The position numbers and the translations under genes were made by a program. A stretch of 64,000 nucleotides of DNA from NCBI GenBank assembly GCA_017302335.1, contig JAFLCT010000001.1:343-64342 (forward strand), read 5' to 3'. Of the stretch, positions 10,550 through 27,135 are shown piece by piece. Numbering within the stretch: position 1 is the first letter of the stretch; each line of letters starts with the position of its first letter. The DNA is from Caulobacterales bacterium. Its GTDB lineage: Bacteria > Pseudomonadota > Alphaproteobacteria > Caulobacterales > Caulobacteraceae. Under the pieces are notes generated by a model that was not told the origin of the DNA, made no database searches, and worked only from the letters and a program-made list of their open reading frames with translations.

Positions 10550-13500
10550 TGGGTGGCGCCTTGCGTTCGACGCTCTCGCCGACTGAGACCCGAACTGGGC
10601 GCGCCGACGGACAGGCGGTTGTTGTAGCCCGGCGTCGTCAGGTCGCCGAGCAGATGCCGCAGGGCGCTGACGAACAGGGGTTCCAACGGGACCTCGCCAC
10701 GGGCCTGCGCCTTCTGCACCGAGGCCAAAAGCTTGTTGCGGATATTGGCCGCCGCGCTCTGATCGCCCCGGCCCTGGATATCCAGAGCAAAGGTGCTGTG
10801 TTCGGCCAGGGCCTTCAGGAAGGTGTCGAACTCCGCCAGATCCGGGCGGGACACCGAACCCTGATGCGGGAAATCGATGATGTCCGTCTCGGTCCCCATG
10901 ACGACCGAGCCGATCTGCACCGCCAGGCCCGAGGGTTCGAAATCCTGAGCCGCGCGTTCATTGTCCTCCAGCACGATGGCGGCGTCCCGGATCACCATGC
11001 CGTTCGCCACCTCCAGCTTCGGGATCGGCGACATGAAGACGGACGGACGCCGGGATTGGCCGTCCGCCGCCAGGCTGAACAGCGTCAGAAGGCGGCTGAC
11101 CGGCGTGTCCGCGCGCGCATCGGTGTGATCGCCGTGCATCCGTTTGAACAGGCCCGCGCCGCGACCGCACAGGGCGAAGCCGCACGAGGTCAGCAATTCC
11201 GGCCGCAGATCGCCCTGGGCGATCAGGCCGCGCGCGACCAGGCCCAGATACCAGGCGACCCCGCCCAGGAAGGTGAAGGCCGACCGGGTCAGCGCCTGGC
11301 ATTCCTCGGTGCCCGAATTGTGCAGCCAATGATCGTCCAGCGCCCTTTCCAGCACCGGGCCGCTGAACAGCAGTTCGCCGACATGGGGCAGGCGATCTCG
11401 GCCGATGCCCTCGGACTCGTCGCCCGCCAGGATCTTGGCCCAGGCCCCCAGGTTGAGGCGGTCGCGCAGCAGGGCCGGGTTCTTGATGACGTGGGCGGTG
11501 AAGAAGTCCTGGCCCGCGAGACGCAGCGAACCGCGCCACAGCGGCCGATTGTCGGCCCAGATCGCCACGTCCGTCGTGCCGCCGCCAATGTCCAGGACGA
11601 TGTTCAGATCGCTGGCGACGAAGCTGTGATCGCCCAGACCTCCGCTAAGCACATAGTTGGCCGCCGCCCGGCCTTCGGAGTACAGGCCGCGGATCGGCTG
11701 GGTTTTGAGTTCGGCCATGCGAGCCTCGGCGGCGGGTCGAATAACCCGCAACTCGCGCCTCAACAGCTCCAGGAACTCGCCGCCGTCGGTCCTTTGCGCA
11801 TCGGGCCGCGAGAAGCGCCACTCCAGCAGATCGGGGTCCTTGTTGCGGGCCAGGGCCTCCACCCCGATCATCATCATCATCTGGCGAAGGAAACGACCCG
11901 CCAGGATGCGAGACCGCGGCGACGGGTCCGCCTTCAGACCAAAGTCCGCAGTCGATCCGGTCTCGGAACCATGGTGCCATTTCAGATTGAAGCTGGCGCG
12001 GGTCAGGACGCCCCGGAACTTCTTCTCGTCGTCGTTGTCTTCCTTCAGTTCGAGATCGGGTTGGAAATAGATCAGCGACGAGAACAGGGTGCGGTGGTCA
12101 TCCTCGCTGACGCCCGCGCGCTGGACCACGACGGTCGGCGTCGGCGTGCGTTTTTCCACCAGCGGAAAGAAGATCTCGGCGAACGGCCATCGCAAGCCCC
12201 GCTCCGCCGCCGCATTCCGTGCCGGTTCGCTGGACGTGATTGCTTCCAGCGTGCGCTTTCCGAACACCACTGGCAGCCCGTCCTCGAAACAGGCGACGGT
12301 GTTGGTCGTGCCGAAGTCGACGGCCGCAATGCCCACTTCGTTCGCCGTCTCGATGACCGTGGGCCGCAACAGGGTCATGCCCGCCGGTTCCGCCGACGCG
12401 CCCTGACTTTCCGCATAGGCGAAGAAGATGGCTTCAAAGGCGAAGGGCGAGGATTGAAGCTCCTCGACCACCGCATCGTTGTCGGGACGCACCCGGTTGT
12501 TCCAGGCGGAGGCGAAGCCCTTGCCCGCATAGGGTTCGGCCTCGCTGACGATGTCGTCGTCGGCGCATAGGGGGCGGAAGGCCGCCTCTTTCTGGAGCGG
12601 CGCCAGCGGTTTCAGCATTTCCGCGAACGCCCGCCCCGAGACGGCGAAACGCGCGCGAATGTTGTTCTCCATCTTGGTGGAGTAGTTGAGGCGCGCGAAA
12701 TACCAGTTCCATTTGGAGCTGGCGATGTCGGGCCACACCGCGGCCCCGCCATAGTTCCATTCCGCCTCGTCGACGCGCTCGCCCTGGCCCGGCTCGGGTT
12801 GGTCGGCGTAGACGCGCCGCATGGTGAACTCGGCGGGCTTGACCACCCATCCGTCCGCATGGCCCGGCGCCTGGGAGCGGTGGCCTTCCAGCTTCAGCTT
12901 CAACGAGACCGACTCGCCGGACCCGCCCTCGGATCGGACCTCTATCGCCTCGGCCAGTTCGGTCGGTTTCATCAAGAGCAGGGCGAGCGGGGTGAGCGGC
13001 AACAGGGCGTCGCGCAAACCGGCGGGGTGCCCCGGAACGACGGCCTTCAAGGCCAGCCGAAGGAATTTGCGGGTGAACAGGGCCGACGGACGCGCGACCA
13101 GATAGTTGGCCTCGGCCGCCGCCGTCTGGACCTTCAGCAGCGCGGCCTCGCTGTCCAGCACCTCGGCTAAGGTGGTGGCGCCCCAGACCACGACATCGCG
13201 CGCGGGCTTGCCGCGCGCCTCGGCGATGGCGGGATCGACCAGGATGACGCCCTTGAACGGCGCCGTCTCCGCGTCGAAATCGGCGCGCAGGGCCACACGG
13301 CATTCGGACAGTTCGGCCGGGGCGCCCAGGTCGTCCTGCTCACCCAGTTCGACGCTGGTGCGAACCAGTTCATAAAGGGTCGGCGCCCCGTCGCGCGGCC
13401 CCGCACGCACTTTCAGCCTGTAAGGCGTGTCCGCCTCGCCGCAGGCGTCGGCGAAATCGGTGACCCGATCCCGCAGACTGACATAGACGGGATCGTTGTA

Positions 13501-14205
13501 ATCCGTGGTCAGGGTCTCCAGACCGGCCGCCAGATTGTCGAGATAGGTCTGCAAGGCGCGCCTCTGCACTGCCGACAAGGCGCGATCGCCTTTCAGCTTC
13601 AGCGGGTCGATCCAGTGCGAACCCGCCATCCAGGGCACGACGGGGATCGGCGTCCGATCGCAAGCCCGCCCCGGCGACACCAGGCTGGCGGGACTGAGCG
13701 CGCCGATCAGCCGGGGCCGGTCATAGTTGCGACGATCCTGGCTGTTGCGACCCTTCACTGTCTCGATGTGGATCAGCCAGGGGGTCCGCCAGTCGGCCTG
13801 GGCGGCCGCCGCCTCCTGGGGCAGCGTCTGGGTGGGCAGAAGCGCCAGCAGAATCCGATCCAGACGCGGCCCGTCCGCCTTCAGCCGAACCGGCCGCGCC
13901 GACAGCTTGTAGAAGTCGGCCATCAGGTGTTCGAGCGCGAACAACGCCAACAGGGCGCGCCACTTCTCGACCGTGTCCGTCTCCAGCGGATGGTCGGCGG
14001 TGATCAGGGCGTCGGCGAAGGTTCGCGGCTGCGCCCAGGCGTCCGGCACGGACTTGACGTCCTGAACGCCGCCGCCCGTCTTGACGTCCAGTCGCGCCCC
14101 CATCTCGGCCAGGGTGCCCGGAGACGGCATCCATTCGCCAGCGCGGTCGGGATCGGGAAACGATCCTCGGGCCTTCAACGGAGGGAGGTTGTAGGTCCGG
14201 CTCAT
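10546..14205 (-). CDS. 1219-aa protein with actin/Hsp70-fold ATPase core and a ~620-aa N-terminal region of unknown function
   Basis: Hsp70-type phosphate-1 motif IAAVDFGTTNT (nt 12298-12327) and phosphate-2 motif LDIGGGTTDV (nt 11566-11595). A possible adenosine motif follows (FALCGRGAG). Overlaps both neighbours by ATGA. Confidence 0.75.
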   Translation of the reverse strand: MSRTYNLPPLKARGSFPDPDRAGEWMPSPGTLAEMGARLDVKTGGGVQDVKSVPDAWAQPRTFADALITADHPLETDTVEKWRALLALFALEHLMADFYKLSARPVRLKADGPRLDRILLALLPTQTLPQEAAAAQADWRTPWLIHIETVKGRNSQDRRNYDRPRLIGALSPASLVSPGRACDRTPIPVVPWMAGSHWIDPLKLKGDRALSAVQRRALQTYLDNLAAGLETLTTDYNDPVYVSLRDRVTDFADACGEADTPYRLKVRAGPRDGAPTLYELVRTSVELGEQDDLGAPAELSECRVALRADFDAETAPFKGVILVDPAIAEARGKPARDVVVWGATTLAEVLDSEAALLKVQTAAAEANYLVARPSALFTRKFLRLALKAVVPGHPAGLRDALLPLTPLALLLMKPTELAEAIEVRSEGGSGESVSLKLKLEGHRSQAPGHADGWVVKPAEFTMRRVYADQPEPGQGERVDEAEWNYGGAAVWPDIASSKWNWYFARLNYSTKMENNIRARFAVSGRAFAEMLKPLAPLQKEAAFRPLCADDDIVSEAEPYAGKGFASAWNNRVRPDNDAVVEELQSSPFAFEAIFFAYAESQGASAEPAGMTLLRPTVIETANEVGIAAVDFGTTNTVACFEDGLPVVFGKRTLEAITSSEPARNAAAERGLRWPFAEIFFPLVEKRTPTPTVVVQRAGVSEDDHRTLFSSLIYFQPDLELKEDNDDEKKFRGVLTRASFNLKWHHGSETGSTADFGLKADPSPRSRILAGRFLRQMMMMIGVEALARNKDPDLLEWRFSRPDAQRTDGGEFLELLRRELRVIRPAAEARMAELKTQPIRGLYSEGRAAANYVLSGGLGDHSFVASDLNIVLDIGGGTTDVAIWADNRPLWRGSLRLAGQDFFTAHVIKNPALLRDRLNLGAWAKILAGDESEGIGRDRLPHVGELLFSGPVLERALDDHWLHNSGTEECQALTRSAFTFLGGVAWYLGLVARGLIAQGDLRPELLTSCGFALCGRGAGLFKRMHGDHTDARADTPVSRLLTLFSLAADGQSRRPSVFMSPIPKLEVANGMVIRDAAIVLEDNERAAQDFEPSGLAVQIGSVVMGTETDIIDFPHQGSVSRPDLAEFDTFLKALAEHSTFALDIQGRGDQSAAANIRNKLLASVQKAQARGEVPLEPLFVSALRHLLGDLTTPGYNNRLSVGAPSSGLSRRERRTQGATQ

Positions 14206-15785
14206 TCGGCCCTCTCCTTGGTCGGCACGCGCGCGGCGTGATGCACCATGGCGGCGAGCCGACCAAAGCCCCTGTGCCCGGCGGCGGCATGGGTGTCGCG
14301 CAGGGCGCGGCTGGTCAGCTCGTCATGCAGGGCGGCGGCGCTGCGCGGGGGTTCATTGTGGTCCAGGGGCGACAGCGCGGCGTTGTAGGCCTCGTTCGCA
14401 CGTTGATCCGTCAGGCCGTCGGCGATCTTGATGGGGCGCCTGGGTTGGCGGACATCGGCCTGTTCCTGAACGGCCTCGGTGTTCCAGAGCTGGAATTTCA
14501 GACCTGAATCCTCGGCGTACAGGCGCATCGCGCCGCACCACATCAACAGGCTGTCGAACAGCAGGATCAGGCGTTTCCTCGCGTCATCGGTTTCCGTGAC
14601 CTGGAAGTCGACGTCGCGGGTCAGATCCTGAAGCCAGCCCGCCTTCAGCCGGCCCAGGAGATTGCGGCGACCCAGTTCCGGCTCGACCTGGAACCGCCAC
14701 CACACCGCCGTGCGCAACAACTGGCCCAACCGATCATAGGTGTCCTGATGCCGTGCATGAGCCGCGCCCGGCAGGTCGCCCCAGCCCACGACCCCCGGCT
14801 TGGCGCGGGCGCAGACCTTCACGGCGGTTCCGACCTCTTCGGCGGCTTCAATCGCGGGGGCGTTGAAGAAGTCGATGGCCGCCTGGGCGCCCAGAAGCTC
14901 TGACGGCAGGGGCGGATTGATCTGGTCGTTGTCGCCGGGCGAGTGGTGCGGAAGCTTGAATATCTTGTCGCTGCCCGCGAGGTAGATGTGGTCGAAGACC
15001 GGCTCGCTCTTGAACAACTGGTTGTAGTACTGGAGCGCGGCCTGCGCCTGGGGCATCAGATTGGCGGCCAGCACGACGTTGTCGGTTTCGTCTTCGGGGT
15101 CCGCGAAGCTGAAATAGGGCAGCATCAGCGCCCCGCCCAGCTTCACCTTGTCGCTGTTGCGGGCCTCCTTGCGCAGTGCGTTGATCCGCCGCGCCAGGAT
15201 CGGGAAACCGGCGGCGCCGGTGCCCCCGAAGGCCGAGCCGACCAGGAAGATGCGCACATCGCCGTCGATGGTGGCGTTCTTCATCAGCTCGATCATGCGC
15301 TTCTTGAACTGGCCGTCGCCCAGTTCGAGGCTGGCCAGCATGGCTGCGGCGCCGACGTGGGCGCGGCCGCGGTAGCCCTGGCCCAGCCCCATGTCCTGCT
15401 CCTCCTGGCCCTCCAGGAACAGCAGATCCATCAAGGCTTGCCGGTCGGCGTCCAGACCGCCGCGGTCCAGAATCTGCGCCAGACTGCCCTGCCCGTCGGC
15501 CGAGGGCCGCCAATAGGGATCGTCGCCGAACAACGGCTCGATCTGCACGCGGCCGAGCGTGGTGCGGGTCCAGTCCAACCGGTTATCGGCGCTGAAATCC
15601 CTCCTGAATTTCACCAGATCGTAGAGCAGTTCGCGCGTGCGCGTCAGATTGCCGTTCGCCTTGTCCTGGTCGACCAGGCCGACGACGACCTTGCTGGGTC
15701 CCAGTCCCGCGAAAAAGAGATAGAGCGCGGCCTCGACGACCTTGGCGCCGGTTCCTCCGACGCCGATGAGGACGTTGGTGGTCAT
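14202..15785 (-). CDS. Divergent FtsZ/tubulin-like GTPase (527 aa)
   Basis: ORF 14202..16313 trimmed to the ATG at 15785, which overlaps the stop of the upstream 4-TM gene. The N-terminal IGVGGTGAK (15741-15767) resembles the FtsZ T1 loop. GSAFGGTGAAG (15207-15239) resembles the tubulin/FtsZ GGGTGSG signature. Confidence 0.7.
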   Translation of the reverse strand: MTTNVLIGVGGTGAKVVEAALYLFFAGLGPSKVVVGLVDQDKANGNLTRTRELLYDLVKFRRDFSADNRLDWTRTTLGRVQIEPLFGDDPYWRPSADGQGSLAQILDRGGLDADRQALMDLLFLEGQEEQDMGLGQGYRGRAHVGAAAMLASLELGDGQFKKRMIELMKNATIDGDVRIFLVGSAFGGTGAAGFPILARRINALRKEARNSDKVKLGGALMLPYFSFADPEDETDNVVLAANLMPQAQAALQYYNQLFKSEPVFDHIYLAGSDKIFKLPHHSPGDNDQINPPLPSELLGAQAAIDFFNAPAIEAAEEVGTAVKVCARAKPGVVGWGDLPGAAHARHQDTYDRLGQLLRTAVWWRFQVEPELGRRNLLGRLKAGWLQDLTRDVDFQVTETDDARKRLILLFDSLLMWCGAMRLYAEDSGLKFQLWNTEAVQEQADVRQPRRPIKIADGLTDQRANEAYNAALSPLDHNEPPRSAAALHDELTSRALRDTHAAAGHRGFGRLAAMVHHAARVPTKERAE

Positions 15786-16306
15786 CAGCGCCTCCCCAGG
15801 CGATGCAGCACGGCCGCGCCGGGCACGGCCGCCGCCATGGCCGGGCGGGTCGAAAAGACCGTGCCCAGATAATAGGCCAGGACGACCCCGGCCATCGTCA
15901 GGCCGACCGACAGGGCCAGGGTCGCAGGGTTCTGAAGCGCGGCCTGAAGCGGGCGGCTCCAGAGCATGAACCAGGCCTCGCCGCCCACGGCTGCAAGCAC
16001 CGTGACGAACAGACCGGCCCAGGCGCCGCGATAGGCCTCGGCCTGGCGATCGTTGATCGGATCGGCCCGTACGGTGATCCACACCCAGACCAGGGACATC
16101 AACGCACTGAGCGCGAAGGCGATTGACGCCAGGGGCAGCAGCAGTTGTCGCAGATCCCCGAGCGCCAGTTCGATCTGCAATCGACTGGACGCTGTCTCCA
16201 TGAAGCCCGAGTTCAGCGACTCTTCCCGGCCGCCGATCAGCCACAGACCGATCGCCACGACGCCCCAGAACAGAAGATGCACCAGCACTGTTCGCAAGAA
16301 ACGCAT
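15785..16306 (-). CDS. Four-TM membrane protein, function unknown
   Basis: 173 aa with four hydrophobic helices. Its frame differs from the spurious N-terminal extension of the 703-aa track ORF. Stop/start overlap with the tubulin-like gene. Confidence 0.65.
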   Translation of the reverse strand: MRFLRTVLVHLLFWGVVAIGLWLIGGREESLNSGFMETASSRLQIELALGDLRQLLLPLASIAFALSALMSLVWVWITVRADPINDRQAEAYRGAWAGLFVTVLAAVGGEAWFMLWSRPLQAALQNPATLALSVGLTMAGVVLAYYLGTVFSTRPAMAAAVPGAAVLHRLGRR

Positions 16307-16348
16307 ACGCCATCCCCTCTCAAAATGATCAAACCCCGGCCGCCGCCC

Positions 16349-17809
16349 CTAGCCTTGCGTGCGTACGATGAAGGCGAAGCCCGCCCCCGCGCCTGGCTCA
16401 CCGCGCGCGGACAAGGCCCGGGCGTGGGCGCTTTCCAGGGCCTCGGCGAAGCGGGCCAACCCCAGGGTCGGCGCCAGGCCGTCGTCGCGATCCAGGGCGG
16501 CGCGTTCGGACTCGACCGACCAGTCGAAGGTCCAGTCGGCGCTCCGCATCCAGGCCGCGGCAGAACCCGCGCCTCGGCCCGGCGCCAGCGGAACCTCGCC
16601 CACGATCAGCAGCGGCTCACTCGGCAGCCCGCGGGACTCCGCCCTTGGATCGAAGCGGAAGACCACGTCGCCCGCCTCATCCTGGCTCCAGTCGCCGTTC
16701 AGCCGACCGAGCAGGCGCCAGGCGCCCGGCGCACAGGCCCGCCCCCCGGTCTTGACCCAGACCGAAGCCGTCGCAGCGCCCACATCCAGCGGCCGCGCGA
16801 TCTCGACGTCTCTGCCCTTCTCGCGCCAAATCAGGCGAAGGGCGGGGGCGCTGGCGCCCGAGCCGCCATCACGTTTCAACGTGTATTGCGCGATCGGCCC
16901 GACATCGACGCGCGGCAGGATCGCGGCCTCTTCCATGCCGACGCGGAACAGCGGGCCTTCCAGCTTCGCCGGTCGAGGCGTGACCGCCTGCTTCGGATCG
17001 AGGTTGAACAGGGTGCGGCGTACGCGGCCCTCGTTGAAGGCGGTTTTCAGATAGTTGGCCGCCCTCAGTTCGCGATCCAGCGCGGCGAGGCGATCGGGCG
17101 GCCCGGCGGCGACGAGATAGAGCGGTCGACGCCGCGCCTCCACATTCCTGCGACCGCTGGGAAGGCTGTCCAGGATTCGCCCCTGATAGGGCAGGTTGAA
17201 ACCATAGACGGCGACGCCACGGCCAGAGGCCATGATCCGGCGCAACGGCTCGCCCAGGGCGGCGGCGTCGCTGACGGCCTTCTGCCGATTGTCCATCCAC
17301 AGGTCGCTGATCAGGATGGTCAGCCGGTTCGGCGCCTCGTCCGCCATGCCTTCCAGCGCCGCGTCGATGTGGCTGGCCTTGGCGTCATAGGCCTGCGCCC
17401 TCATGAGGCGATCCAGATCGGCGGCGGGCGCCTCGGTCATCGCCTCGCCCTCGCCGAACAGCTTGTATCCGGTCTGGTCCGCGCCCCACGGCGGGTATCT
17501 CAGCAGGTCGGGTATGAAGCTTTCCCGCGCCCCGCCCGCACGCAGATAGCCCTGCATACTGGCCGACCGATCGAGATAGACGACCGCCCCGCTCCCGCCC
17601 GCCGCGACGACGTCGGCGTGCACGTCGACTGGTATCCAGGGTCTGGCCGCAGCGGGAAAACACCCCCGGGCGCCCTGAACGCCGTCCGCGACCGACGGCG
17701 GGCCGCCATCAGTCTTCGCCGGGGTCCAGCGGTCGCATCCGACGACCCCTTGAGCGGCGCCGAGACAGACGGCTCCCACGACCAGTTTCTTCAATAGGCC
17801 TGCCCCCAT
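16349..17809 (-). CDS. vWA-domain lipoprotein
   Basis: Lipobox LGAAQGVVGC and MIDAS-type DxSxS (VVYLDRSASM, nt 17558-17572), followed by TILISDLW. An alternative TTG start at 17794 (MKKLVVGAV...) is preceded by GGGGCAGG. Confidence 0.7.
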   Translation of the reverse strand: MGAGLLKKLVVGAVCLGAAQGVVGCDRWTPAKTDGGPPSVADGVQGARGCFPAAARPWIPVDVHADVVAAGGSGAVVYLDRSASMQGYLRAGGARESFIPDLLRYPPWGADQTGYKLFGEGEAMTEAPAADLDRLMRAQAYDAKASHIDAALEGMADEAPNRLTILISDLWMDNRQKAVSDAAALGEPLRRIMASGRGVAVYGFNLPYQGRILDSLPSGRRNVEARRRPLYLVAAGPPDRLAALDRELRAANYLKTAFNEGRVRRTLFNLDPKQAVTPRPAKLEGPLFRVGMEEAAILPRVDVGPIAQYTLKRDGGSGASAPALRLIWREKGRDVEIARPLDVGAATASVWVKTGGRACAPGAWRLLGRLNGDWSQDEAGDVVFRFDPRAESRGLPSEPLLIVGEVPLAPGRGAGSAAAWMRSADWTFDWSVESERAALDRDDGLAPTLGLARFAEALESAHARALSARGEPGAGAGFAFIVRTQG

Positions 17810-17873: not shown

Positions 17874-18458
17874 TTGGGGGACTGGGGTTTGGCGGCGTTC
17901 GAGACCATCATGTTTGATGACGGCGGGACCGTGGTCGAACTCCAGACCGCTCGCTCGGTGCGGCGCGCGGTGGAGAACGGCGTCCTCAAGATCGACACCC
18001 TGGTCACGCTGATCGCCCTAGACGGATCGACCCGCCGACTACGCGCCGCCGAGATCGAGGCGCTTCGTCCATTGTTCGGCCAGGCCGAAGTCGTGGACGA
18101 AAAGGTCTCGCCCGTCGTCGATCCGCCGATCATCGAGGCCGCCAGTGATGAAATCTCGGCCGAGACCGACCCTGTCGTCGCGCCCCGGGCGACGCAGATC
18201 ACGGCCGTGCAGGCCGCCTTCTCATCGGCGACGACCGGGACGAGCGCCCCCCCGTCCATCCCCCCAGCGTATCGAACCGCGGCCTCGGCGAAACCGGGAG
18301 GCTGTGGGCTGGTCGCCTGGGGTTGGACCCTTCTGATCGGCGGGCTTCTTCTCAGCGGCGCCTACCCGCCCGCGAGTCTGGCCTTCGTCATCGGCCTGGC
18401 GCTTCTGCTGTTCACCGTCGTGCGGGGCATGGCCCGCCGCATAGGCGGAGGCGCGTGA
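17874..18458 (+). CDS. Membrane protein with N-terminal GYF_2-like domain (paralogue 1)
   Basis: The N-terminal ~60 aa align with the next gene (ARSVRRAVENGVLKIDTLVTLI... versus ARSLRRAIENGLLTRETLVTLI...). Two C-terminal TM helices. TTG start, so the start is uncertain. Confidence 0.55.
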   Translation: MGDWGLAAFETIMFDDGGTVVELQTARSVRRAVENGVLKIDTLVTLIALDGSTRRLRAAEIEALRPLFGQAEVVDEKVSPVVDPPIIEAASDEISAETDPVVAPRATQITAVQAAFSSATTGTSAPPSIPPAYRTAASAKPGGCGLVAWGWTLLIGGLLLSGAYPPASLAFVIGLALLLFTVVRGMARRIGGGA

Positions 18459-18463
18459 CGGCG

Positions 18464-19897
18464 ATGAGCGGTCTCGATTTCAGCCTGCTGTTCTCCGAGG
18501 GCGGCGGCGCCCATCAGTTGAGTTCCGCCCGGTCGCTTCGCCGCGCCATCGAGAACGGACTGTTGACCCGCGAAACACTGGTCACCCTGATCCGGGACGA
18601 AGAAAGCCGAACCCTGCGCGCGGGCGCCGCGCCCGAACTCGCCCCCCTGTTCGATGAGATCATCGGCGCCCTGTCGGTCCGAGAGTCTGAGACGGAGACG
18701 CAGACACAGGCCGCGGACGCCGAAATCTCCGAGGCGTCGCACGCTGAAACCGCCGCCGCCGAAAGCCCCTCCGACACCGCGAGTGCGCTTGAACCTGAGG
18801 CGGTCTCGGCGACGCCCCCGCCCACCTCCAAGAGCGTGGAGGGCGACGGCCGTCTCGAACCGGAAACGGTCGATCGCGCCGCATCGAACAGGGACCCCGA
18901 GTTCTTCGACCTGGATCAACCGCCCGCCCCGGTCGTCTGGGGCGGCGTCGCGGCCATCCTGCTGGCGATCCTCGTCCTGCTTGTGAAATGCGCAGGCGTC
19001 GGACCCGCGCCCTCCCCTGTGAAACCGCCACCCCCCGTGGTCGTGACCCTCTATGTCACGCGCCAGACCAATGTCCGCCCCGATGTCCGGGCGCGCGAGA
19101 TCGGGACCGTGGAGCGTGGCGAGGTCCTGCGTGGCGTAATCCAGGGCGGCGGAGACGGCGACCGATGGCTGCGGGTGTCCGAAGGGCCGCATCAGGGCCG
19201 ATGGGTCTGGGCGGGCAATCTGTCGCCTAGTCCGCGCCCCGCATTGATCGAACGTCTCGACGGCGCCCATCAGGTCCTGAGACCTGGCGTGCTGCGGCGG
19301 GAAGGTCAGGACGGGCGGTTCGTCGAGCACGGCGTTCAGATCGGCGACCGGCTGACCCTGCTGGCCTATGTCGCCGACGATCAGGTCGAGGTTCAGATGG
19401 AAGGCGGCGGCGTCGGCTATCTTCCGGCCCAGGTCTTCCGCCCCGACGAACAGGCCGAGGCCCAGCGCCAGGCCGAACGGGAGGCGGCCCGCCAGGCCCG
19501 AGACGCCGCCAGGGTTGCGGCGGAGGAAAACCGCCGCCGCGCCAACGAAGCCGCCAATGCGGCGGCGGATGCGGCGGCGATGGATGTTCCGCGCACGATC
19601 TCCCAGGCCGACGCCAACTGGCGGCTGCGGATCACCCCGCGGTTGCCCAGCCGTTTGAACCTGTCCGACGGCTCCACGCTGCGCGCGAGCGTCGCCTGCA
19701 TCGTCAGAGACGACGGCGCCATGAGCGATTGCCGCCTGGTGTCGGAACAGCCGCGCAACTCGGGCTACGGCGCCGCCGCTCTGGAGGCGGCCCGTTCCAG
19801 CCGCCACTACCCCGAGGATCGAAGCCGCCGTCCCGTCGGAGGCCGCCAAGTCACCCTGAATTACGAAGCCGACGTCGGCGGGCTGATCAGCCCCTGA
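18464..19897 (+). CDS. Membrane protein: GYF_2-like N-domain, TM helix, SH3-like domain, coiled coil, TonB-C-like domain (paralogue 2)
   Basis: Start trimmed to the ATG at 18464 (MSGLDFSLLF). TM helix VVWGGVAAILLAILVLLV. The C-terminus (ASVACIVRDDGAMSDCRLVSEQPRNSGYGAAALEAA) resembles a TonB C-terminal domain. Confidence 0.6.
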   Translation: MSGLDFSLLFSEGGGAHQLSSARSLRRAIENGLLTRETLVTLIRDEESRTLRAGAAPELAPLFDEIIGALSVRESETETQTQAADAEISEASHAETAAAESPSDTASALEPEAVSATPPPTSKSVEGDGRLEPETVDRAASNRDPEFFDLDQPPAPVVWGGVAAILLAILVLLVKCAGVGPAPSPVKPPPPVVVTLYVTRQTNVRPDVRAREIGTVERGEVLRGVIQGGGDGDRWLRVSEGPHQGRWVWAGNLSPSPRPALIERLDGAHQVLRPGVLRREGQDGRFVEHGVQIGDRLTLLAYVADDQVEVQMEGGGVGYLPAQVFRPDEQAEAQRQAEREAARQARDAARVAAEENRRRANEAANAAADAAAMDVPRTISQADANWRLRITPRLPSRLNLSDGSTLRASVACIVRDDGAMSDCRLVSEQPRNSGYGAAALEAARSSRHYPEDRSRRPVGGRQVTLNYEADVGGLISP

Positions 19898-19900
19898 ATG

Positions 19901-19916
19901 CTGTCGGCCCCGACAG
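19901..19916 (+). terminator. Short GC hairpin after the stop codon (CTGTCG-GCCC-CGACAG)
   Basis: Lies 4 nt after the TGA at 19895-19897. There is no clear U-run. Confidence 0.3.
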
Positions 19917-19970
19917 TCACCCACTCAGTATACATTTGTTTTGCAATGGTTATCTGAAAGGAAAAAGGAA

Positions 19971-20480
19971 ATGACGAAGACGGTGGGCCTAGTCCTGGCG
20001 ATGACCGGGGCATTGGCGATGTCGGCGTGCGCGACCACGGGTCAGGGCGGCGGCGGCGGCAGTTCGCTGGATCGCGCCGTGGCCCGATGCGCCGGCACGG
20101 TGCTGTTGACCGCCGCCCTCGGCGCCGTCATCGGCAACAATACGGGCAGCGGCGGCGCTGGCAGGGGCGCGGCCATCGGCGCCGCGGGCGGCGTCGCCCT
20201 GTGCGCCATCCTGCAACAGGCCCAGCGCGACCAGGCCGTCATCCTGGAAAGCGAACAGATCGCCGCGACGCGGGGCGAGAACCTGGAAAGCAAGGTGCGG
20301 GGCGAAAGCGGCAAGGAGGCCACGCTCAGACACGTCGTCGAAACCGCCCCGGAACAGACCGCGCAGCGACGCTGTCGCTATGTCTCCACCGTGGTGTCGT
20401 ACGGCCAGGGCGAAGCCCCCACCGGCAAACAGCTCTATTGCGAAAGCCTTACAGGCGCCTGGGAACGCATCGACGCCTAG
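19971..20480 (+). CDS. Glycine-zipper lipoprotein
   Basis: The ATG at 19971 is preceded by AAAGGAAAAAGGAA. Lipobox LAMSAC. Gly-rich zipper segment (GAVIGNNTGSGGAGRGAAIGAAGG). Confidence 0.7.
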   Translation: MTKTVGLVLAMTGALAMSACATTGQGGGGGSSLDRAVARCAGTVLLTAALGAVIGNNTGSGGAGRGAAIGAAGGVALCAILQQAQRDQAVILESEQIAATRGENLESKVRGESGKEATLRHVVETAPEQTAQRRCRYVSTVVSYGQGEAPTGKQLYCESLTGAWERIDA

Positions 20481-20633: not shown

Positions 20634-22097
20634 ATGACAACGCATCTGACTAGGGCCGCTGCGGCATGGGTCGTCGCGCTTTTCGGCTTCATCGGTCTTC
20701 AGGGCTGCGCCACGGTTCGGTCGGCGCCCGATCATCGGTTCGACACCCAACCGACGGGGATCGCCTATTTCCTGCCGATGCGGCTGGCGCGGCTGACGAT
20801 CACCCAGACCCCCGTCAGCCTGGCGGACTTGATCACCGATCGGGACGACAAGATCGTGGCCCGCGCTGCGGCGCGGGCGGCCGCTGCGGCCGCGACAGCC
20901 AAGCGCGAACAGGCGCAGACCGCGCTCAACGCCGCCACGGCCGCCAACCGCGCGGACCTGACCAGGGCGCTCGAAACGGCGACGGCGGATGAGAACAAGG
21001 CCAAGACCGCCGCGACGGCCGCCAATGCGGCGGTCGAAGCCGTCACGCGCGACATCTACGCGGCCAGCGTGAACGGACAATCCTGCACCTTTGTCCCGAC
21101 CATCGACCTGCTGCCGGTGCAGGCGGATCGACGCCGCCGCTTCGCGCTTCAGCCCGTTCACAACGAACTGCGTGACGACACGCTGAAGATTGGCCTGACG
21201 CCGACCAGCCTGCTGACGACCGGCGATGTCACCGCCGTAGACCAGACAGGCCAGATCCTCGTCGACCTCGCCGGCGTGGCCGGCGCCGCGGCGGGCGTCG
21301 GCCGGGATGGTGGCGGCGCCGATGACGACGGTTGTCCGGGTCCGGCGGTCTGGGCCACGATCTTCGACCCCGCCGAGGCCGCCGCCATCGACCAGGTCAA
21401 TCTCCAGCTCACCAGCAATGACCTGCCCTTCTTTCTGACAGCCCAGATCGATGGACCGGCGATCTCACGAGATCGGACGACCGACGCGGCCCTGCCCGCG
21501 GCCCAGGTGGCGGAAGGCGTATTCTACCGGTCGGCCGCGCCGCTCCTGCTGATCCTGAACCGCACCTTCAGAACAGGCGCAGGTGCGGAAAATGCAGGTG
21601 GAGACGCCGGCGGCGCCCAGATCGTCTCTGGACCGGTTCAGATCCCGCGGGTCGCCGCGCCGCCGGTTCGGGTTGATCCCGCACCTCAGGTGGAGGGGGT
21701 TCCGGCCCTGGCCGCCGTGCTCATCCTGCCCCAGGCGGGACCGGTGTCGCGCCTGTCGCTCCCGGCTTCACCGTTCGTGCGCACCCATCACGCCTATGAA
21801 TTCGCGGACGGGGCCTTGATCTCGGTCTCCAGCGAGCGCCCCGGCGCCGTTCCTTCCGCCGTCAAGGTGCCTCTGCTCGCGCTCAACGCCTTCGCCGACG
21901 CCTTCGCCAAGGCCGTGGCGGTTCGCGTCGATATCCGCTCCACGCGCATCAATGACGACACGGCGGCCATCGACGCCGTCATCCAGGATCGGCTCAACGT
22001 CGCCCTGATGTCCTGTCTGGACGCCGCAGGCGCCGACACGACGGCGATCCGCGCCTGCGCGAGCGCGTACCGAGGCGCCGGGGCGCCCGCGCCGTGA
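20634..22097 (+). CDS. Lipoprotein with Ala-rich coiled coil, function unknown
   Basis: Lipobox FIGLQGC and an Ala/Thr-rich helical stretch. Its stop overlaps the caspase-like gene start (GTGA). Confidence 0.6.
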   Translation: MTTHLTRAAAAWVVALFGFIGLQGCATVRSAPDHRFDTQPTGIAYFLPMRLARLTITQTPVSLADLITDRDDKIVARAAARAAAAAATAKREQAQTALNAATAANRADLTRALETATADENKAKTAATAANAAVEAVTRDIYAASVNGQSCTFVPTIDLLPVQADRRRRFALQPVHNELRDDTLKIGLTPTSLLTTGDVTAVDQTGQILVDLAGVAGAAAGVGRDGGGADDDGCPGPAVWATIFDPAEAAAIDQVNLQLTSNDLPFFLTAQIDGPAISRDRTTDAALPAAQVAEGVFYRSAAPLLLILNRTFRTGAGAENAGGDAGGAQIVSGPVQIPRVAAPPVRVDPAPQVEGVPALAAVLILPQAGPVSRLSLPASPFVRTHHAYEFADGALISVSSERPGAVPSAVKVPLLALNAFADAFAKAVAVRVDIRSTRINDDTAAIDAVIQDRLNVALMSCLDAAGADTTAIRACASAYRGAGAPAP

Positions 22098-23830
22098 CGC
22101 GGCGGCGTGTCCGATCCTGGACCTGCCGGATCATCGGCACCGCCTTTTGCGGTTTTCTGGGAGCCACGGCGGCGTCCGCCCAGACCCTCGCCGACCTGCC
22201 GACGTGGGCGCAGGAACGTCAGGCGCCGTCCAGACGCGCCCTGGTCATCGGCGTGCAGGACTACGCCAGGGTCGCGTCGCTCATCACGCCCAGGGCCGAT
22301 CGCGATCTCATGGCCCGCCGTCTGCGCGACCTGAACTTCATGGTCACCGCGCCCGAGCCGCTGAACCTCGACCGACGCCAGATGCTCGACCAGATCGACG
22401 CCTTCCTGACCTCCCTGAGACCCGGCGATGTCGCTGTGCTCTATTTCAGCGGCCATGGGATCGAGCGTGGCGGCGCCCTCTATCTCGCCCCCAGCGACGC
22501 CGGGCCGCCCGCGCCCGAACGAGAAGGGCTGGAGCTGATCAGTCTGGACTTCCTCCTCGACGAGATGCGGAACGCAGGCGTGGGCCTGGCCGTGGTCTTG
22601 CTGGACGCTTGCCGAACCGACCCGTTCTCCGGCGCGCCCGTCGCCGACGTCGTGCTCGCCGCCCCTGCCAGCGAGGTCTCGGCAGACCTGGCGGCGACGC
22701 CGCCTCTGGACCCTTCGCCCAGCCTACGGTCAGAGCCGGTCGATCTGGCCAAGGTCGATACGCCATACAGCGTTCTCGTCGGCTACGCCGCCCGCTCCGG
22801 CCAGCCCGCCTACAGCCTTCAGGGCGCGCATGACACGGCCGAGCGCGGCAGCCTCTACACCCGGGTCATGGCCGCCACCCTGGGTCGGCCCGGCGCCGAT
22901 CTGTACGAAGACCTGCGCGACGCCAACCAGACCGTCGCCATCCGCACGGGCAACCGTCAGACGCCATGGATCGGCGCGGGCGCCCCGCCCGACTTTGAAC
23001 TCCGTCCGTCCGAAGCGTTCCGCCGGCGCGAGGAAGAGGTCTGGGTCATGGCCGCCTCCCTGCTCACGCCGCTTCGAGAGGCCGGAGAACTGGCCGACTA
23101 TCTGGCCTATTTCCCCGCCTCCGAATTCTCCTTTGCCGCGCGGCGACGGTTGTTCGTCCTCCAACAAAGGGATGCGAGATTGGGGAGGACATGGCAGGCC
23201 CTGCCATCGGACGCCTCGCCCGACAGCCTCCAAAGGCTGGCCGGGGCCTTGATCAGCCGCAGCCTAAATCGCCCCGACCAGGGTCTGATCGGCGTCGCGG
23301 CCAACGATCTGACCGTCTATGACGCTCCCGCCGGTTTCCTGCGCCGTCGCGAGGCTCTGGCGCGGCTCGCCGAAGGCGCCCAGGTGGAGATCCTGGACGC
23401 GAACCTGTCGAACAGGGCTTCCAGCGTGCGGGTCGCCCTGGACGACGGGAGGGTCGGTTACATCGACCGCGTCCGCAGCGAGACCGTGGCGGTTCAAGCC
23501 ACCGCCACCGCCGTCTTCGCGGCGGCTTCGCCCAGCGAGGAGGCAAACTACGCGCCGACCGTCGACTTCACGGCCGCGACGCTAGCCCTGTTGCGTTCAA
23601 GCCGCGCGCGAATCGAGGTCGATATCGCCCCGCCCGTCCCGACCGACGGCGCTGATCCCATGGCTACGGTGGAGGCCCGACGACTGGCCTATGTCCGAGG
23701 ATTGGCCCTGCGACGGCGACTCATCGACCTGGGCGCATCCAGCACGGACGTTATCGTCAACATCTCCGAGCCGGGTCGAAACATCGACGCCGCGACCATT
23801 CGGATCGGCGAACTGGGAGGACCCCGATGA
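22094..23830 (+). CDS. Exported caspase-family (peptidase C14) protein with C-terminal extension
   Basis: Signal peptide ending AASAQ. RALVIGVQDY, the YFSGHG catalytic His (22454-22456) and the VLLDACR catalytic Cys (22610-22612). An SH3-like segment lies downstream. Confidence 0.8.
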   Translation: MTRRRVRSWTCRIIGTAFCGFLGATAASAQTLADLPTWAQERQAPSRRALVIGVQDYARVASLITPRADRDLMARRLRDLNFMVTAPEPLNLDRRQMLDQIDAFLTSLRPGDVAVLYFSGHGIERGGALYLAPSDAGPPAPEREGLELISLDFLLDEMRNAGVGLAVVLLDACRTDPFSGAPVADVVLAAPASEVSADLAATPPLDPSPSLRSEPVDLAKVDTPYSVLVGYAARSGQPAYSLQGAHDTAERGSLYTRVMAATLGRPGADLYEDLRDANQTVAIRTGNRQTPWIGAGAPPDFELRPSEAFRRREEEVWVMAASLLTPLREAGELADYLAYFPASEFSFAARRRLFVLQQRDARLGRTWQALPSDASPDSLQRLAGALISRSLNRPDQGLIGVAANDLTVYDAPAGFLRRREALARLAEGAQVEILDANLSNRASSVRVALDDGRVGYIDRVRSETVAVQATATAVFAAASPSEEANYAPTVDFTAATLALLRSSRARIEVDIAPPVPTDGADPMATVEARRLAYVRGLALRRRLIDLGASSTDVIVNISEPGRNIDAATIRIGELGGPR

Positions 23831-24792
23831 GGCGCATCCCCCATCGCCTGCGGCCCACGCTGCTGGGTCTCGCCTTCATCCTGATCGGGTCGCCGTCGGG
23901 CGCCCAGGTCGCACCGCCGCCTTTGCGTGCGTCCGATTACGGCGCGGCCGTTTCCGATCGTATCCGCGAGACCCTGCTCGCGGCCGAGACCGGGGATGTG
24001 ATGCTCGGCGCCAAGATTATGGGCGGGTCCGAGGCCGTCCCAGGCGACGATCCTTGGCAAGCAGGTCTGATCATCGGTCGCACGCCGGACGAGGTCCGGG
24101 CGCCGTTCTGCGGCGGCGCCGTCATCGCCCCGCAGTGGGTGGTGACCGCGGCCCACTGCGTCGACAACGGCACCAGCCCGCAGGTCGTCGACGTGGTGAC
24201 CGGTTCGGTCGATCTCGCGACCGGACGGCGCAGTCACGTTGATCTCATCGTCATCCATCACGGTTGGACGCCTGGGCCGCGCGGCGCGCCCACGTTCCGC
24301 AACGACGTGGCGCTGCTACATCTGTCCGAGTCCGTCGCAGCGACGCCGATCGCGCTCGCCACCACCGCCGACGCCCCCGACCTGGAGCGGGCCGGAGCCT
24401 TGGGCCGCGTCACGGGGTGGGGCAAGACCTCGGAACTCGGCGCCTTGCAGAACCGTCTTCGCACCCTGACGATCCCCGTGGTCGCCGCCGCCGATTGCAA
24501 TGACCGGGTGGCCTACGGCGACCGCGATCCGACCACGCCGCCGCTGATGCCGGAGATCATGCTGTGCGCAGGTCGGGCCGACGGCGGGCAAGACGCCTGT
24601 CAGGGCGACAGCGGCGGCCCCTTGACCGGGTCCACGGCCGACGGACGTATTCTGGTCGGCGTCGTCAGTTGGGGCAAAGGGTGCGGGCGGCGCAACAAAT
24701 ACGGCGTCTACACTCGCCTGTCGGCCTTTTCGGACTGGATCACGGCCTGCATCAACGGCGGTGACTGCCCCCGCCGACAGCCCGGCTCCTAA
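23827..24792 (+). CDS. Exported trypsin-like serine protease (S1 family), zymogen-type
   Basis: Signal peptide; K/IMGGSEA activation-type N-terminus (I64 at 24016-24018); VTAAHC, NDVALLHL and CQGDSGGPL triad motifs. ATGA overlap with the caspase-like gene. Confidence 0.88.
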   Translation: MRRIPHRLRPTLLGLAFILIGSPSGAQVAPPPLRASDYGAAVSDRIRETLLAAETGDVMLGAKIMGGSEAVPGDDPWQAGLIIGRTPDEVRAPFCGGAVIAPQWVVTAAHCVDNGTSPQVVDVVTGSVDLATGRRSHVDLIVIHHGWTPGPRGAPTFRNDVALLHLSESVAATPIALATTADAPDLERAGALGRVTGWGKTSELGALQNRLRTLTIPVVAAADCNDRVAYGDRDPTTPPLMPEIMLCAGRADGGQDACQGDSGGPLTGSTADGRILVGVVSWGKGCGRRNKYGVYTRLSAFSDWITACINGGDCPRRQPGS

Positions 24793-24878
24793 GGGTGTGC
24801 GCTGCCTGCCCTCAAAACAGCAGGTGAGAGCGCCGCCCGGCGTGTGATCGCGCAAGGTCGCCGATGTGCGCTCAGAAC

Positions 24879-25604
24879 CTAGGTCGTCTCGCGTCGGCTC
24901 AGGCTGATCAGCATCAGCATCAACACCAGCAGCCCCCCGCCACACCCCAGGGCCAGGGCCGTCTGCCAACGCCAAGCTTCGGTCGCCAGCATATTCACCG
25001 GCATCTGCCAGGGCAGGAAGACGCCCTTTTTGGCCGAGGTCGCCACAACGGCGAAGAAGGTCCCGCCGATCCCCGTCGCCAAGGCGGGAACGAAGCTGGA
25101 GAACCGCAAGGCGACCCACAACTGGATCGCGATCAGCAGCAGGGCCGCCAGATACATCCGACCCAGCAGCGCGGCTACCTCGGCCCAGTCGATCATCCCG
25201 GTCGGCCCTGCCGCGGGCTTGATCACCGTCGCCGCCTCCAGAACCGCCCAGATCAGGGTCGGCACCGCCGCCGACATGATGGCGACCAACCCCAGCACAC
25301 AGAACGCCTTGGCCGCATATATCCGCCAACGCGGCACCGGCAGGGCGCGCAGATGGTCCCAGCTCTTCGGCCCGTGCTCCATATGCGCGATCAGGGCCGT
25401 CAAGGCCGTCACGCTCATCGGCAGCATGAAGAAGGCCCATACGCCCGCGCCCTGCATCATCCACATCTCCCACGGCAGCGCCTGGCGCATCCGCAGGGCG
25501 TTGAAGAAGACGAAGACCGCGATCAGGCCCGGCGCCAGCCCGGCCAGGGCCAGGGCCAGGGATCGGTTCAACTTGGCGATCTCGACATAGAGCGGGGCGA
25601 ACAT
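24879..25604 (-). CDS. ABC-2 type transporter permease
   Basis: 241 aa, six hydrophobic helices. ATGA overlap with the upstream ATPase gene. Confidence 0.7.
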   Translation of the reverse strand: MFAPLYVEIAKLNRSLALALAGLAPGLIAVFVFFNALRMRQALPWEMWMMQGAGVWAFFMLPMSVTALTALIAHMEHGPKSWDHLRALPVPRWRIYAAKAFCVLGLVAIMSAAVPTLIWAVLEAATVIKPAAGPTGMIDWAEVAALLGRMYLAALLLIAIQLWVALRFSSFVPALATGIGGTFFAVVATSAKKGVFLPWQMPVNMLATEAWRWQTALALGCGGGLLVLMLMLISLSRRETT

Positions 25605-26536
25605 CAGGCGGCCTCCTTCTGGGCTTCCACGGCCGTGACCTGGCGGTACAGACCCTCTAGGCTGCGGGCGCGCGGGCCGATGGCGATCACGTCCACCCCC
25701 GCCTGGATCAGAGCACGGTTCAAATCGACCGATGCGCGCTCCACCGCCTCGCCCGGCGCCAACGCGACCACCACCTCGCCGTGCTCGACCGCGGCCTGCA
25801 ACCCCTTCGAGCGCGCCAAGGCCAGGGCCGCCTTCGCGTCCGTCGCGCGCACCGCGATCCGCGCCGCCACCCCCGCGCGCAGGGCCGTCAATTCGCCCTC
25901 CAGCACCAACCGCCCGGCGTGTATCACGCCGACATGGCTGGCCGTCTGTTCTATCTCGCCCAACAGGTGGCTGGACAACAGCACGGTCGCGCCGGTTCGT
26001 CCGGGAAGATCGCGCAGGAAATGGCGCATATCGGCGATGCCGTCCGGGTCCAGACCGTTGGTCGGTTCGTCCAGGATCAACACCGGCGGCGCCCCCAGCA
26101 TGGCCCGCGCCAGGCCCAATCGCTGACGCATACCCAGCGAATAGCCGCCGACCCTGCGACCCGCGTCGCCCGTCATCTCGACCACCGCCAGCACCCGGTC
26201 GATCTCGCTCGCCGGCAGGCCCAGCAACCGTCGCGTCAGGTCCAGGTTCTCGCGCCCCGAAAGATTGGCGTAGAAGCCGTGCGCTTCCAGTAGGGCGCCC
26301 ACCTTCCGCGCCGCCGCGATCCGGTCGGCCGCCACGTCGATCCCGCCGACCACCGCCCGCCCCGCGCTGGGCTTCAGCAGGCCTAGCAGCATCTTCAGCG
26401 TCGTCGTCTTGCCCGCGCCGTTACGGCCCAGAAAGCCGTACACCGCCTGTTCCGGCACGGTCATGGACACGCCGTCGACAGCCAGCATTCGTCCGAAACG
26501 GCGCGTCAGAACATGAGTCTCGATTGCAGGGGACAT
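25604..26536 (-). CDS. ABC transporter ATP-binding protein
   Basis: Walker A GRNGAGKTTT, signature YSLGMRQRL, Walker B LILDEPTNGLD. Confidence 0.9.
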   Translation of the reverse strand: MSPAIETHVLTRRFGRMLAVDGVSMTVPEQAVYGFLGRNGAGKTTTLKMLLGLLKPSAGRAVVGGIDVAADRIAAARKVGALLEAHGFYANLSGRENLDLTRRLLGLPASEIDRVLAVVEMTGDAGRRVGGYSLGMRQRLGLARAMLGAPPVLILDEPTNGLDPDGIADMRHFLRDLPGRTGATVLLSSHLLGEIEQTASHVGVIHAGRLVLEGELTALRAGVAARIAVRATDAKAALALARSKGLQAAVEHGEVVVALAPGEAVERASVDLNRALIQAGVDVIAIGPRARSLEGLYRQVTAVEAQKEAA

Positions 26537-26557
26537 GGGGCGACGGCGCTCCAGATA

Positions 26558-26609
26558 TTTAAGTCAGAGATAAAGTTGCGCATATCGTTTTTTTAAGTCA
26601 AAATTAAAG
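26558..26609. promoter_or_regulatory. Two copies of an 18-nt direct repeat TTTAAGTCArArwTAAAG. The second contains TTAA-N7-TTAA.
   Basis: Copies at 26558-26575 and 26592-26609 (15 of 18 identical, 34-bp offset) in the AT-rich divergent promoter between the ABC ATPase gene and the DUF2975 gene. Sub-boxes: TTAAGTCAGAGATAA (26559-26573) and TTAAGTCAAAATTAA (26593-26607). Confidence 0.5.
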
Positions 26610-26640
26610 AACCGTCATCCAAGCCAGCCCGCTGAAGCTC

Positions 26641-27135
26641 ATGATCCAGAACGATCTCACCGCCTTTCGCTTGCGCTGCCGTCAGTTTCACTGGTTGGCG
26701 GTCTTCATGGTCGTCAGCGTCGGCGGTCTGCTGGCGTTGATGCATCTGATCGCGCCGCTGACGCAGGCTGCGCGGGGAGACCGGCCGATCGACGACGGCT
26801 TCTGGCGGCAGTTGATCATGGCGTCGCCGACAGTATGTTACCTTTATGGCGTCTGGGCGATCGGCGCGGCGATGAAGCGGATCGGCGCCGGCGCCCTGCT
26901 CCAACCCGCCGTCGCCGACGCCCTGCGCCGCGTCGGCCTGGCTCTGGGGATCGGCGGCGTCATCAGCGTCTTCGTGGCGATCAACCTGCTGCGGCTGATG
27001 GGCATGGCCAACGGATACGCCTATTTCGACGTGCCGGGCATGACGCTGGGCATGATCGGCGGGGCGCTGTTCCTGCTGAGCCGGGTCATGAGCCAGGCTG
27101 CGGCGGCGCAGGCCGAGCTGGACGAGATGATCTGA
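26641..27135 (+). CDS. DUF2975-like membrane protein
   Basis: 164 aa, four TM helices. Sits directly upstream of, and overlaps by 1 nt, a small HTH gene. This is the usual DUF2975 / YozG-type pair. Confidence 0.65.
   Translation: MIQNDLTAFRLRCRQFHWLAVFMVVSVGGLLALMHLIAPLTQAARGDRPIDDGFWRQLIMASPTVCYLYGVWAIGAAMKRIGAGALLQPAVADALRRVGLALGIGGVISVFVAINLLRLMGMANGYAYFDVPGMTLGMIGGALFLLSRVMSQAAAAQAELDEMI

Follow-up and report, generated by a model that had tools for sequence, protein, structure and literature searches.

A lipoprotein family encoded beside interchangeable proteases, and its translationally coupled version with a caspase-like protease plus a trypsin-type zymogen in a Caulobacterales genome

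Results

Organization of the locus

We analyzed a 64,000-nucleotide stretch of DNA from a Caulobacterales bacterium (assembly GCA_017302335.1, contig JAFLCT010000001.1, positions 343 to 64,342 of the forward strand; hereafter the window), with a GC content of about 68%, and focused on three consecutive genes that encode a lipoprotein (gene 1), a caspase-like protease of family C14 (gene 2) and a trypsin-like protease of family S1A (gene 3, hereafter S1). Open reading frame (ORF) calling, Pfam, NCBIfam and PADLOC were applied to the three operon proteins, and export signals were judged by reading the sequence alone. The genes are (aa, amino acids):

20634-22097, + strand: gene 1, lipoprotein, 487 aa (ORF)
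20634-20708, + strand: signal peptide and lipobox LQG-C25 of gene 1 (read from the sequence)
22094-23830, + strand: gene 2, caspase-like C14 protease, predicted exported, 578 aa (ORF, Pfam)
23827-24792, + strand: gene 3, trypsin-like S1A precursor, predicted exported, 321 aa (ORF, Pfam)

The stop codon of gene 1 overlaps the GTG start of gene 2 by four nucleotides (nt) (GTGA, 22094-22097), and that of gene 2 overlaps the ATG start of gene 3 to the same extent (ATGA, 23827-23830), so that both overlaps described in an earlier note on this DNA were located; a GGAGGA is found 5' of the start of gene 3, and the GC content at third codon positions (0.82-0.84) is of the coding type in all three ORFs. 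The lipoprotein, C14 and S1 genes are a translationally coupled three-gene operon. Furthermore, all three products look exported, as the earlier note had proposed: each N-terminus has a basic n-region and a hydrophobic core, followed by a small-x-small site (ASA/Q in C14, SGA/Q in S1) or by a lipobox (LQG/C in gene 1), and Sec-type signals are predicted in the C14 protein (MTRRRVRSW-IIGTAFCGFLGATAASA/Q) and in the S1 protein (MRRIPHRLRP-TLLGLAFILIG-SPSGA/Q). In PADLOC-DB 2.0 the only match was a weak one of the 'caspase' hidden Markov model to the C14 protein (E 1.4e-8), with none for gene 1 and S1. By every sequence test the C14 and S1 proteins are ordinary members of their families, while gene 1 fits no tested family.

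The lipoprotein family

No Pfam, NCBIfam or PADLOC model matches gene 1, and a word-indexed homologue search gave only 10-11 matches; the view of gene 1 as an orphan, drawn from word-indexed searches, was overturned by an exhaustive search in which a profile of these homologues was compared with 1.84 billion cluster representatives. At E<=1e-3 this search matched 1906 clusters, a loosest set that may include coiled-coil noise; tightening the threshold to E<=1e-10 left 843 of them, and E<=1e-30 left 230. All named family members carry the name 'hypothetical protein', none of 64 diverse members matches a relevant Pfam family, and the long members (600-817 aa), scanned for informative domain fusions, had none. 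In the plasmid collection the gene 1 protein of the window was unmatched, and the query P0027 had one match on a Paraburkholderia megaplasmid, unannotated and with a neighbour lacking a Pfam match.

The lipobox was found in 128 of 143 full-length family representatives, typically as L-[AS]-G-C-A-T-V; its cysteine is at least 90% conserved among 64 family sequences, and G24 and C25 are invariant in nine homologues. Four further cysteines (C151, C234, C461 and C475) are conserved as well, as would fit disulfide bonding in a protein that is exported.

Protease genes adjoining the lipoprotein gene

The neighbourhoods of gene 1 homologues were compared at all retrievable loci, 30 of which are independent; a profile search of genome contigs with a narrower alignment gave 4 loci. 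A protease gene adjoins the homologue in 23 of the 30 loci. In 21 of these it overlaps the homologue or is no more than about 125 nt from it (usually 0-70 nt), and L024 and L035 have gaps of about 250-370 nt; a single protease is present in 21 of the 23. As an internal control, among roughly 86 genes of these loci that do not adjoin the homologue, only about 3-4 carry a peptidase family, by the author's count from the gene tables. The adjacency occurs in at least four named taxa, including Alpha- and Betaproteobacteria and a weak match in Planctomycetota, as well as in low-GC marine contigs. The partners belong to at least eight Pfam families and to the cysteine, serine and metallo classes:

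L002, L003, L004/5/6, L009, L012/13, L034: short C14, 265-276 aa
Window clade, L017: long C14 and S1
L015, L022, L031: S1
L039: Trypsin_2 and S8
L023: S8
L035: Trypsin_2-endonuclease fusion
L007, L010, L014, L020, L025, L037: M10/astacin-like
L038: reprolysin-like
L033: M48
L024: C70/C39-like

No recognised protease was found near the gene 1 homologue in the other seven loci (L011, L018, L019, L027, L029, L032 and L040).

Cassettes L004 and L007 have a common upstream gene (81% identity) and gene 1 homologues that are 60% identical, followed by a C14 protease in the former and by an M10 protease in the latter; between them one protease class has taken the place of another. Moreover, gene 1 and the short C14 proteases diverge together (r = 0.83 for pairwise identities over 15 pairs, which are not independent of one another), the invariant motifs of gene 1 are the same whatever the class of the protease, and S1 is missing from most loci of the family. 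What stays constant in this module is the lipoprotein; the proteases are interchangeable, and S1 is optional in the wider family. The core unit is thus a lipoprotein plus a protease rather than two proteases, and the emphasis moves from the pair of proteases in the earlier note to a lipoprotein family that recruits them.

Several cassettes have features of their own. Immediately 5' of the gene 1 homologue, L004 (5730-6704) and L007 (3-1019) encode a conserved protein of 324-338 aa, with no Pfam match, no signal peptide and a beta-rich C-terminal half, possibly a third component of that cassette subtype. The M10 protease of L025 (6438-7226) is matrix metalloproteinase-like, with a PG_binding_1 prodomain, a PRCGFPD cysteine-switch motif recognised by eye and no signal peptide, and is another zymogen-type partner. 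L039 (5480-8549) has, after its gene 1 homologue, genes for an exported Trypsin_2 protein (311 aa) and an exported S8 protein (700 aa), with an E1-like ThiF/Y4jH cluster upstream; this is a second, independent two-protease architecture, and the doubling is not unique to the window clade. On a low-GC marine contig, L035 (6597-8453, - strand), a 618-aa fusion of Trypsin_2 and Endonuclease_NS converges on the gene 1 homologue. TIR genes lie a few kilobases from cassettes of the lipoprotein and short C14 type in L004 (1797-5636) and L003 (547-1263), those of L004 coming with pNTSase1 and TPR-S, in what may be a functional link, as in type IV Thoeris, or a common island.

Predicted structure of the lipoprotein

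An AlphaFold2 model of gene 1 was built on the 64-sequence alignment and has a mean predicted local distance difference test (pLDDT) score of 81 and a predicted template modeling (pTM) score of 0.64; a run on nine sequences (pLDDT 55) was discarded. The modelled chain has short beta strands past the lipid anchor, then an alpha-hairpin of about 85 residues (63-147), beta-rich domains and long C-terminal helices. The hairpin length is kept at 88-102 residues across the family, and blocks 41-60, 161-220 and 361-420 are strongly conserved, while segment 303-366 varies in length from 21 to 119 residues and pLDDT is low at 207-232 and in parts of 325-344.

The earlier note had called for structural homology searches, which for the lipoprotein gave a divided outcome. 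The best Foldseek matches in the PDB were to chains of AcrA and MacA, aligned across about 220 columns with E values from 5e-3 to 1e-2 and a probability of 0.98-0.99, but the template modeling (TM) scores were low (0.15-0.33). Profile comparisons gave no support: hhalign of the family against one membrane fusion protein (MFP) reached a non-significant probability of 9.7%, a PDB sequence-profile search returned coiled-coil noise only, and MFP Pfam models matched 0 of 64 family members. The modelled resemblance to these adaptors is a lead only. A Foldseek comparison with viral structures gave nothing beyond helical-hairpin noise. A gasdermin identity was rejected, with no Pfam or PADLOC match and no gasdermin among the 50 Foldseek PDB matches listed.

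The caspase-like protease

Gene 2 matches Peptidase_C14 (PF00656) with 92.7 bits, against a cutoff of 21.4, and an 85%-identical homologue is named 'caspase family protein [Brevundimonas sp.]' at NCBI; a sub-threshold match of its C14 domain to the NCBIfam model 'caspase_w_EACC1' was also detected (60.8 bits, cutoff 140). Its features are:

22232-22975, + strand: C14 catalytic domain, residues 47-294 (Pfam)
22454-22456, + strand: His121 (alignment to MALT1)
22610-22612, + strand: Cys173 (alignment to MALT1)
22991-23827, + strand: C-terminal extension, residues 300-578 (conserved with the protease)

The intact His/Cys dyad noted earlier is in register with that of MALT1 (YFSGH121G with YYAGHG, LLDAC173R with LLDMCR), and D171-x-C173 aligns with MALT1 D462-x-C464. 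We take D462 to be a pocket residue of MALT1, which would make D171 the likely acid of the S1 pocket in gene 2. Orthocaspases and bacterial caspase-like proteases cleave after basic residues or arginine (PMC6426788; bioRxiv 10.1101/2024.10.24.620036). Because D171 matches MALT1 D462 and these relatives have a published basic specificity, the gene 2 protease is most likely to cut after Arg or Lys, and such a preference means that it could cut the S1 protein between K63 and I64.

A search for homologues of the C-terminal extension, also suggested in the earlier note, found no Pfam match at E<=5 and no PDB profile match; the extension is 34% identical to the corresponding region of the L017 C14 protein. 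Readings of this region by eye as TPR-like, SH3b-like or OmpA-like could not be substantiated and are not claimed. The long C14 of the window is only distantly related to the short C14 proteases of other cassettes (26% identity, E 1e-4).

The fold, the His/Cys dyad and an Asp two residues before the Cys are common to gene 2 and to MALT1, orthocaspases, the type IV Thoeris caspase and PCaspase. Unlike these, gene 2 is predicted to be exported and has a 280-residue C-terminal extension without a detectable homologue, and the TIR or CRISPR partner of such caspases was not found in the window.

The trypsin-like protease

Pfam Trypsin (PF00089) matches gene 3 with 184 bits, and the following features were assigned:

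23905-24015, + strand: propeptide, residues 27-63, ending in Lys63 (alignment)
24013-24018, + strand: predicted activation cleavage site K63/I64 (alignment of I64MGG)
24016-24741, + strand: catalytic domain, residues 64-305 (Pfam Trypsin)
24154-24156, + strand: His110 (alignment to plasma kallikrein)
24304-24306, + strand: Asp160 (alignment to plasma kallikrein)
24610-24612, + strand: Ser262 (alignment to plasma kallikrein)

The catalytic triad and the K-IMGG junction that the earlier note had read as zymogen-like are borne out by alignment: the triad is His110/Asp160/Ser262, and I64MGG aligns with the IVGG that opens the mature chains (residue 1) of kallikrein, factor IX, prostasin and trypsin, which would place I64 at the mature N-terminus. 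D256 is the equivalent of Asp189, and equivalents of Gly216 and Gly226 complete a trypsin-type pocket; D261, directly ahead of S262, is the equivalent of Asp194. In addition, the motif of the 37-residue propeptide and the K/I(M/V)GG junction are kept in L001 and L017. Gene 3 carries the hallmarks of a chymotrypsin-fold zymogen, and an inactive precursor state is predicted. With trypsinogen, prekallikrein and factor IX it shares the fold, the triad, the Asp189-type pocket, Asp194 and the junction of a basic residue with I-x-G-G; unlike them, it is bacterial, carries a Sec signal and has a distinct 37-residue propeptide.

The earlier note proposed that one of the proteases activates the other. 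Since S1 itself has a trypsin-type pocket, autoactivation at Lys63 is as possible as cleavage by C14.

The trio in relatives

The window is 85-88% identical in nucleotide sequence to Brevundimonas contigs, and the synteny check proposed in the earlier note found the trio, with the same overlaps, in the Brevundimonas-like loci L001, L008, L016, L041 and L042, where the proteins are 72-89% identical. In L017 a gene 1 homologue (40% identity) is followed by an overlapping C14-S1 pair on the opposite strand, in convergent orientation; its C14 is 35% identical over residues 143-573, the whole C-terminal extension included, and its S1 is 51% identical to that of the window (about 49-51%). The trio stays together through divergence and rearrangement, since L017 keeps all three genes at 35-51% identity in a rearranged order.

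Discussion

What the lipoprotein may do

The reading that we favour, with a probability of roughly 40%, is that the lipoprotein is a dedicated substrate of its neighbouring proteases, matured or activated by cleavage, and that a C14-to-S1 step is possible in the window. The module would consist of a constant, lipid-anchored lipoprotein and one or two dedicated, variable proteases in the cell envelope. In the window version, the lipoprotein, an Arg/Lys-specific C14 protease and an S1A zymogen would all be exported, and the zymogen would be cut at K63/I64, either by C14 or by itself. The active protease or proteases would then cleave the lipoprotein, most plausibly around residues 207-232 or 312-352, which are variable, low-confidence segments, and this cleavage would convert it from a latent to an active or released form. 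This reading is suggested because hypervariable, disordered loops around a conserved core suit a protein that is cut in those loops, and because a constant partner that adjoins proteases of interchangeable class follows the logic of protease-effector modules.

That the lipoprotein is the substrate, which protease cuts which and what role the cleaved form has are inferred. Several points weigh against this reading. About half of the partner proteases, among them all short C14 enzymes and the M10-like enzymes of L007, L010, L025 and L037, have no signal peptide; judging from their sequences, a signal-less protease and a lipoprotein with a lipobox and four cysteines would occupy different compartments, and no hypothesis considered here explains how they meet. 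Recognised sensor domains were absent from the partner proteases, unlike in most known protease-effector modules of defence. The genomic context is also mixed, with defence or mobile genes at some loci and housekeeping genes at others. Moreover, AcrA and MacA as the best structural matches of the model would fit an adaptor better than a substrate, and self-activation of S1 could make the C14 step unnecessary.

We consider it unlikely that gene 1 is instead a safety-catch or immunity lipoprotein that guards the envelope of the producer against its own or a sibling-delivered protease, as an inhibitor, a trap or a shield of the target, the proteases being the real effectors, such as secreted toxins or nutrient-scavenging enzymes. 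The pairing of a signal-less enzyme with a periplasmic lipoprotein does resemble effector-immunity pairs, translational coupling is tight, and the cassettes behave as mobile units; a protease is commonly co-transcribed with its cognate inhibitor, as in aprA/aprI, staphopain/staphostatin and PopC/PopD. However, known inhibitors serve one protease family, whereas gene 1 pairs with at least eight Pfam families and the protease class was recently swapped. An inhibitory role is unlikely because a single lock-and-key partner is not expected for cysteine, serine and metallo-proteases alike; the conserved surface of an inhibitor would be expected to vary with the class, whereas the invariant motifs of gene 1 are indifferent to it, and this constancy speaks for a substrate. 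In addition, 450-800 aa is large for an immunity protein, and no markers of the type VI secretion system (T6SS) or of toxin delivery were seen near the loci examined.

An adaptor, tether or export helper that positions, activates or releases the protease at the outer membrane would account for the Foldseek matches to AcrA and MacA, the conserved hairpin length and the N-terminal cysteine lipid anchor, as in AcrA, and lipoprotein adaptors of envelope proteases are known (NlpI-Prc, LbcA-CtpA). We nevertheless regard this role as unlikely, to the same degree as the safety catch, given the low TM-scores and the lack of profile support described above, the absence of a conserved inner-membrane transporter or TolC-like gene nearby and the partner proteases, which have no common docking domain. 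The gene 1 model and these adaptors would share the lipid anchor and a beta domain with an inserted long alpha-hairpin, but gene 1 lacks profile similarity and a transporter neighbour and has extra beta domains and long C-terminal helices.

Finally, it is common for bacteria to have exported S1A proteases that include pre-pro regions, and surroundings are of the housekeeping kind at several loci, yet the adjacency in 23 of 30 loci across taxa, the conserved start/stop overlaps, the co-divergence of gene 1 with C14 and the retention of the trio after rearrangement in L017 make it very improbable that these are ordinary degradative enzymes merely co-transcribed with an unrelated lipoprotein.

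Comparison with known protease-effector modules

The pairing of an effector with C14, S1 or S8 proteases that can stand in for one another is an established logic (PMC12642450; bioRxiv 10.1101/2021.06.07.447441). Bacterial gasdermin operons, like the trio, combine a conserved non-protease partner with one or two proteases; their caspase-like, trypsin-like and subtilisin-like classes vary, they form compact mobile cassettes, and control by cleavage is expected (bioRxiv 10.1101/2021.06.07.447441). Whereas gasdermins are cytoplasmic, gene 1 is a predicted Sec/Lsp lipoprotein whose cysteines are conserved, and the proteases of the window look exported and have no sensor domains. Modules with Pepco/Trypco, EACC1, MBL-fold, alpha/beta-hydrolase or CATASP effectors also use several protease classes per effector, with co-evolution (PMC12642450; PMC7159879). 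Gene 1 matches none of these families, the one tie being the sub-threshold caspase_w_EACC1 match of C14, and these effectors are cytoplasmic and usually wired to STAND, CRISPR or TIR sensors; PMC7159879 mentions no lipoprotein partner. The conserved core and variable loops of gene 1 do match known cleavage-licensed effectors. Activation of a bacterial protease by a second one has a precedent in the SAVED-CHAT to PCaspase cascade of type III-B CRISPR (summarised in 10.1101/2024.10.24.620036), which is cytoplasmic and nucleotide-triggered and uses different protease pairs.

In this context, the logic of a partner with swappable proteases is already known, while the gene 1 partner, its lipid anchor, the extracytoplasmic placing and the pair of an exported C14 and an S1 zymogen appear undescribed; no description of a protease-associated lipoprotein family was found in the literature, in an incomplete library that makes this weak evidence of absence.

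A bolder proposal, rather unlikely as a whole, is that the gene 1 family is an unrecognised class of lipid-anchored, extracytoplasmic latent effectors switched on by co-encoded protease(s), with a periplasmic two-step C14-to-S1 zymogen cascade in the Brevundimonas version. A candidate activity would then be membrane-active or conduit-forming, on an adaptor-like hairpin scaffold, and the family would form the equivalent, on the envelope side, of the gasdermin, Pepco and EACC1 modules, carried by mobile cassettes in hundreds of lineages. The suggestion of the earlier note that the operon is a conflict effector or self-destruct module is possible: TIR/pNTSase/TPR-S, HEPN, ApeA, integrative and conjugative element (ICE) or plasmid genes lie near the cassettes of L002, L003, L004, L014, L029 and L035, whereas glycoside hydrolase or other housekeeping genes surround those of L012 and L037.

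In bacterial immunity and cell death, the gating of effectors by proteases is increasingly seen as a dominant logic and, to our knowledge, all characterised examples act in the cytoplasm. The gene 1 family (843 clusters at E<=1e-10) has the same genomic signature but is predicted to lie at the outer face of the inner membrane. If its members are cleavage-activated effectors or general protease adaptors, they would constitute a new envelope-level system, and hundreds of 'hypothetical proteins' would gain a function. The trio of the window is a tractable test case for a bacterial protease cascade outside the cell or in the periplasm; the activation of a trypsin-type zymogen by a caspase-like enzyme would formally resemble the zymogen cascades of animals.

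Genes flanking the trio

L001, L008 and L041 retain, together with the trio, three genes that lie just 5' of it in the window, at 17874-20480 (+ strand); they encode paralogous membrane proteins of 194 aa and 478 aa with a common N-terminal domain and a 179-aa Gly-zipper lipoprotein (PF13441, sub-threshold), and they may share the transcription unit of the trio, the gap before gene 1 being 153 nt.

Farther upstream, a five-gene operon at 9374-17809 (- strand) encodes proteins of 486 aa (lipoprotein-like), 173 aa, 527 aa, 1219 aa and 391 aa; the 527-aa protein matches Pfam Tubulin_2 (30.4 bits, cutoff 27) and the others have no annotation. Identity to the Brevundimonas relatives is 93-95% for the tubulin-like and 1219-aa proteins, compared with about 85% for the proteins encoded next to them. 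The co-occurrence of this 9.4-17.8 kb operon with the trio, raised in the earlier note, was seen in close relatives and not beyond them, and the operon as part of the trio system is unsupported at that wider range.

On the 3' side, nucleotide homology with L001, L008 and L016 stops exactly at 24791, at the end of the S1 gene. In L001, L008, L016, L041 and L042 the S1 gene is followed by TetR/AMP-binding genes. The window has in their place a pair of ABC-2 transporter genes (24879-26536), the gene of a DUF2975 protein (26641-27135) and a small helix-turn-helix gene, with the synteny breakpoint at 24791-27135.

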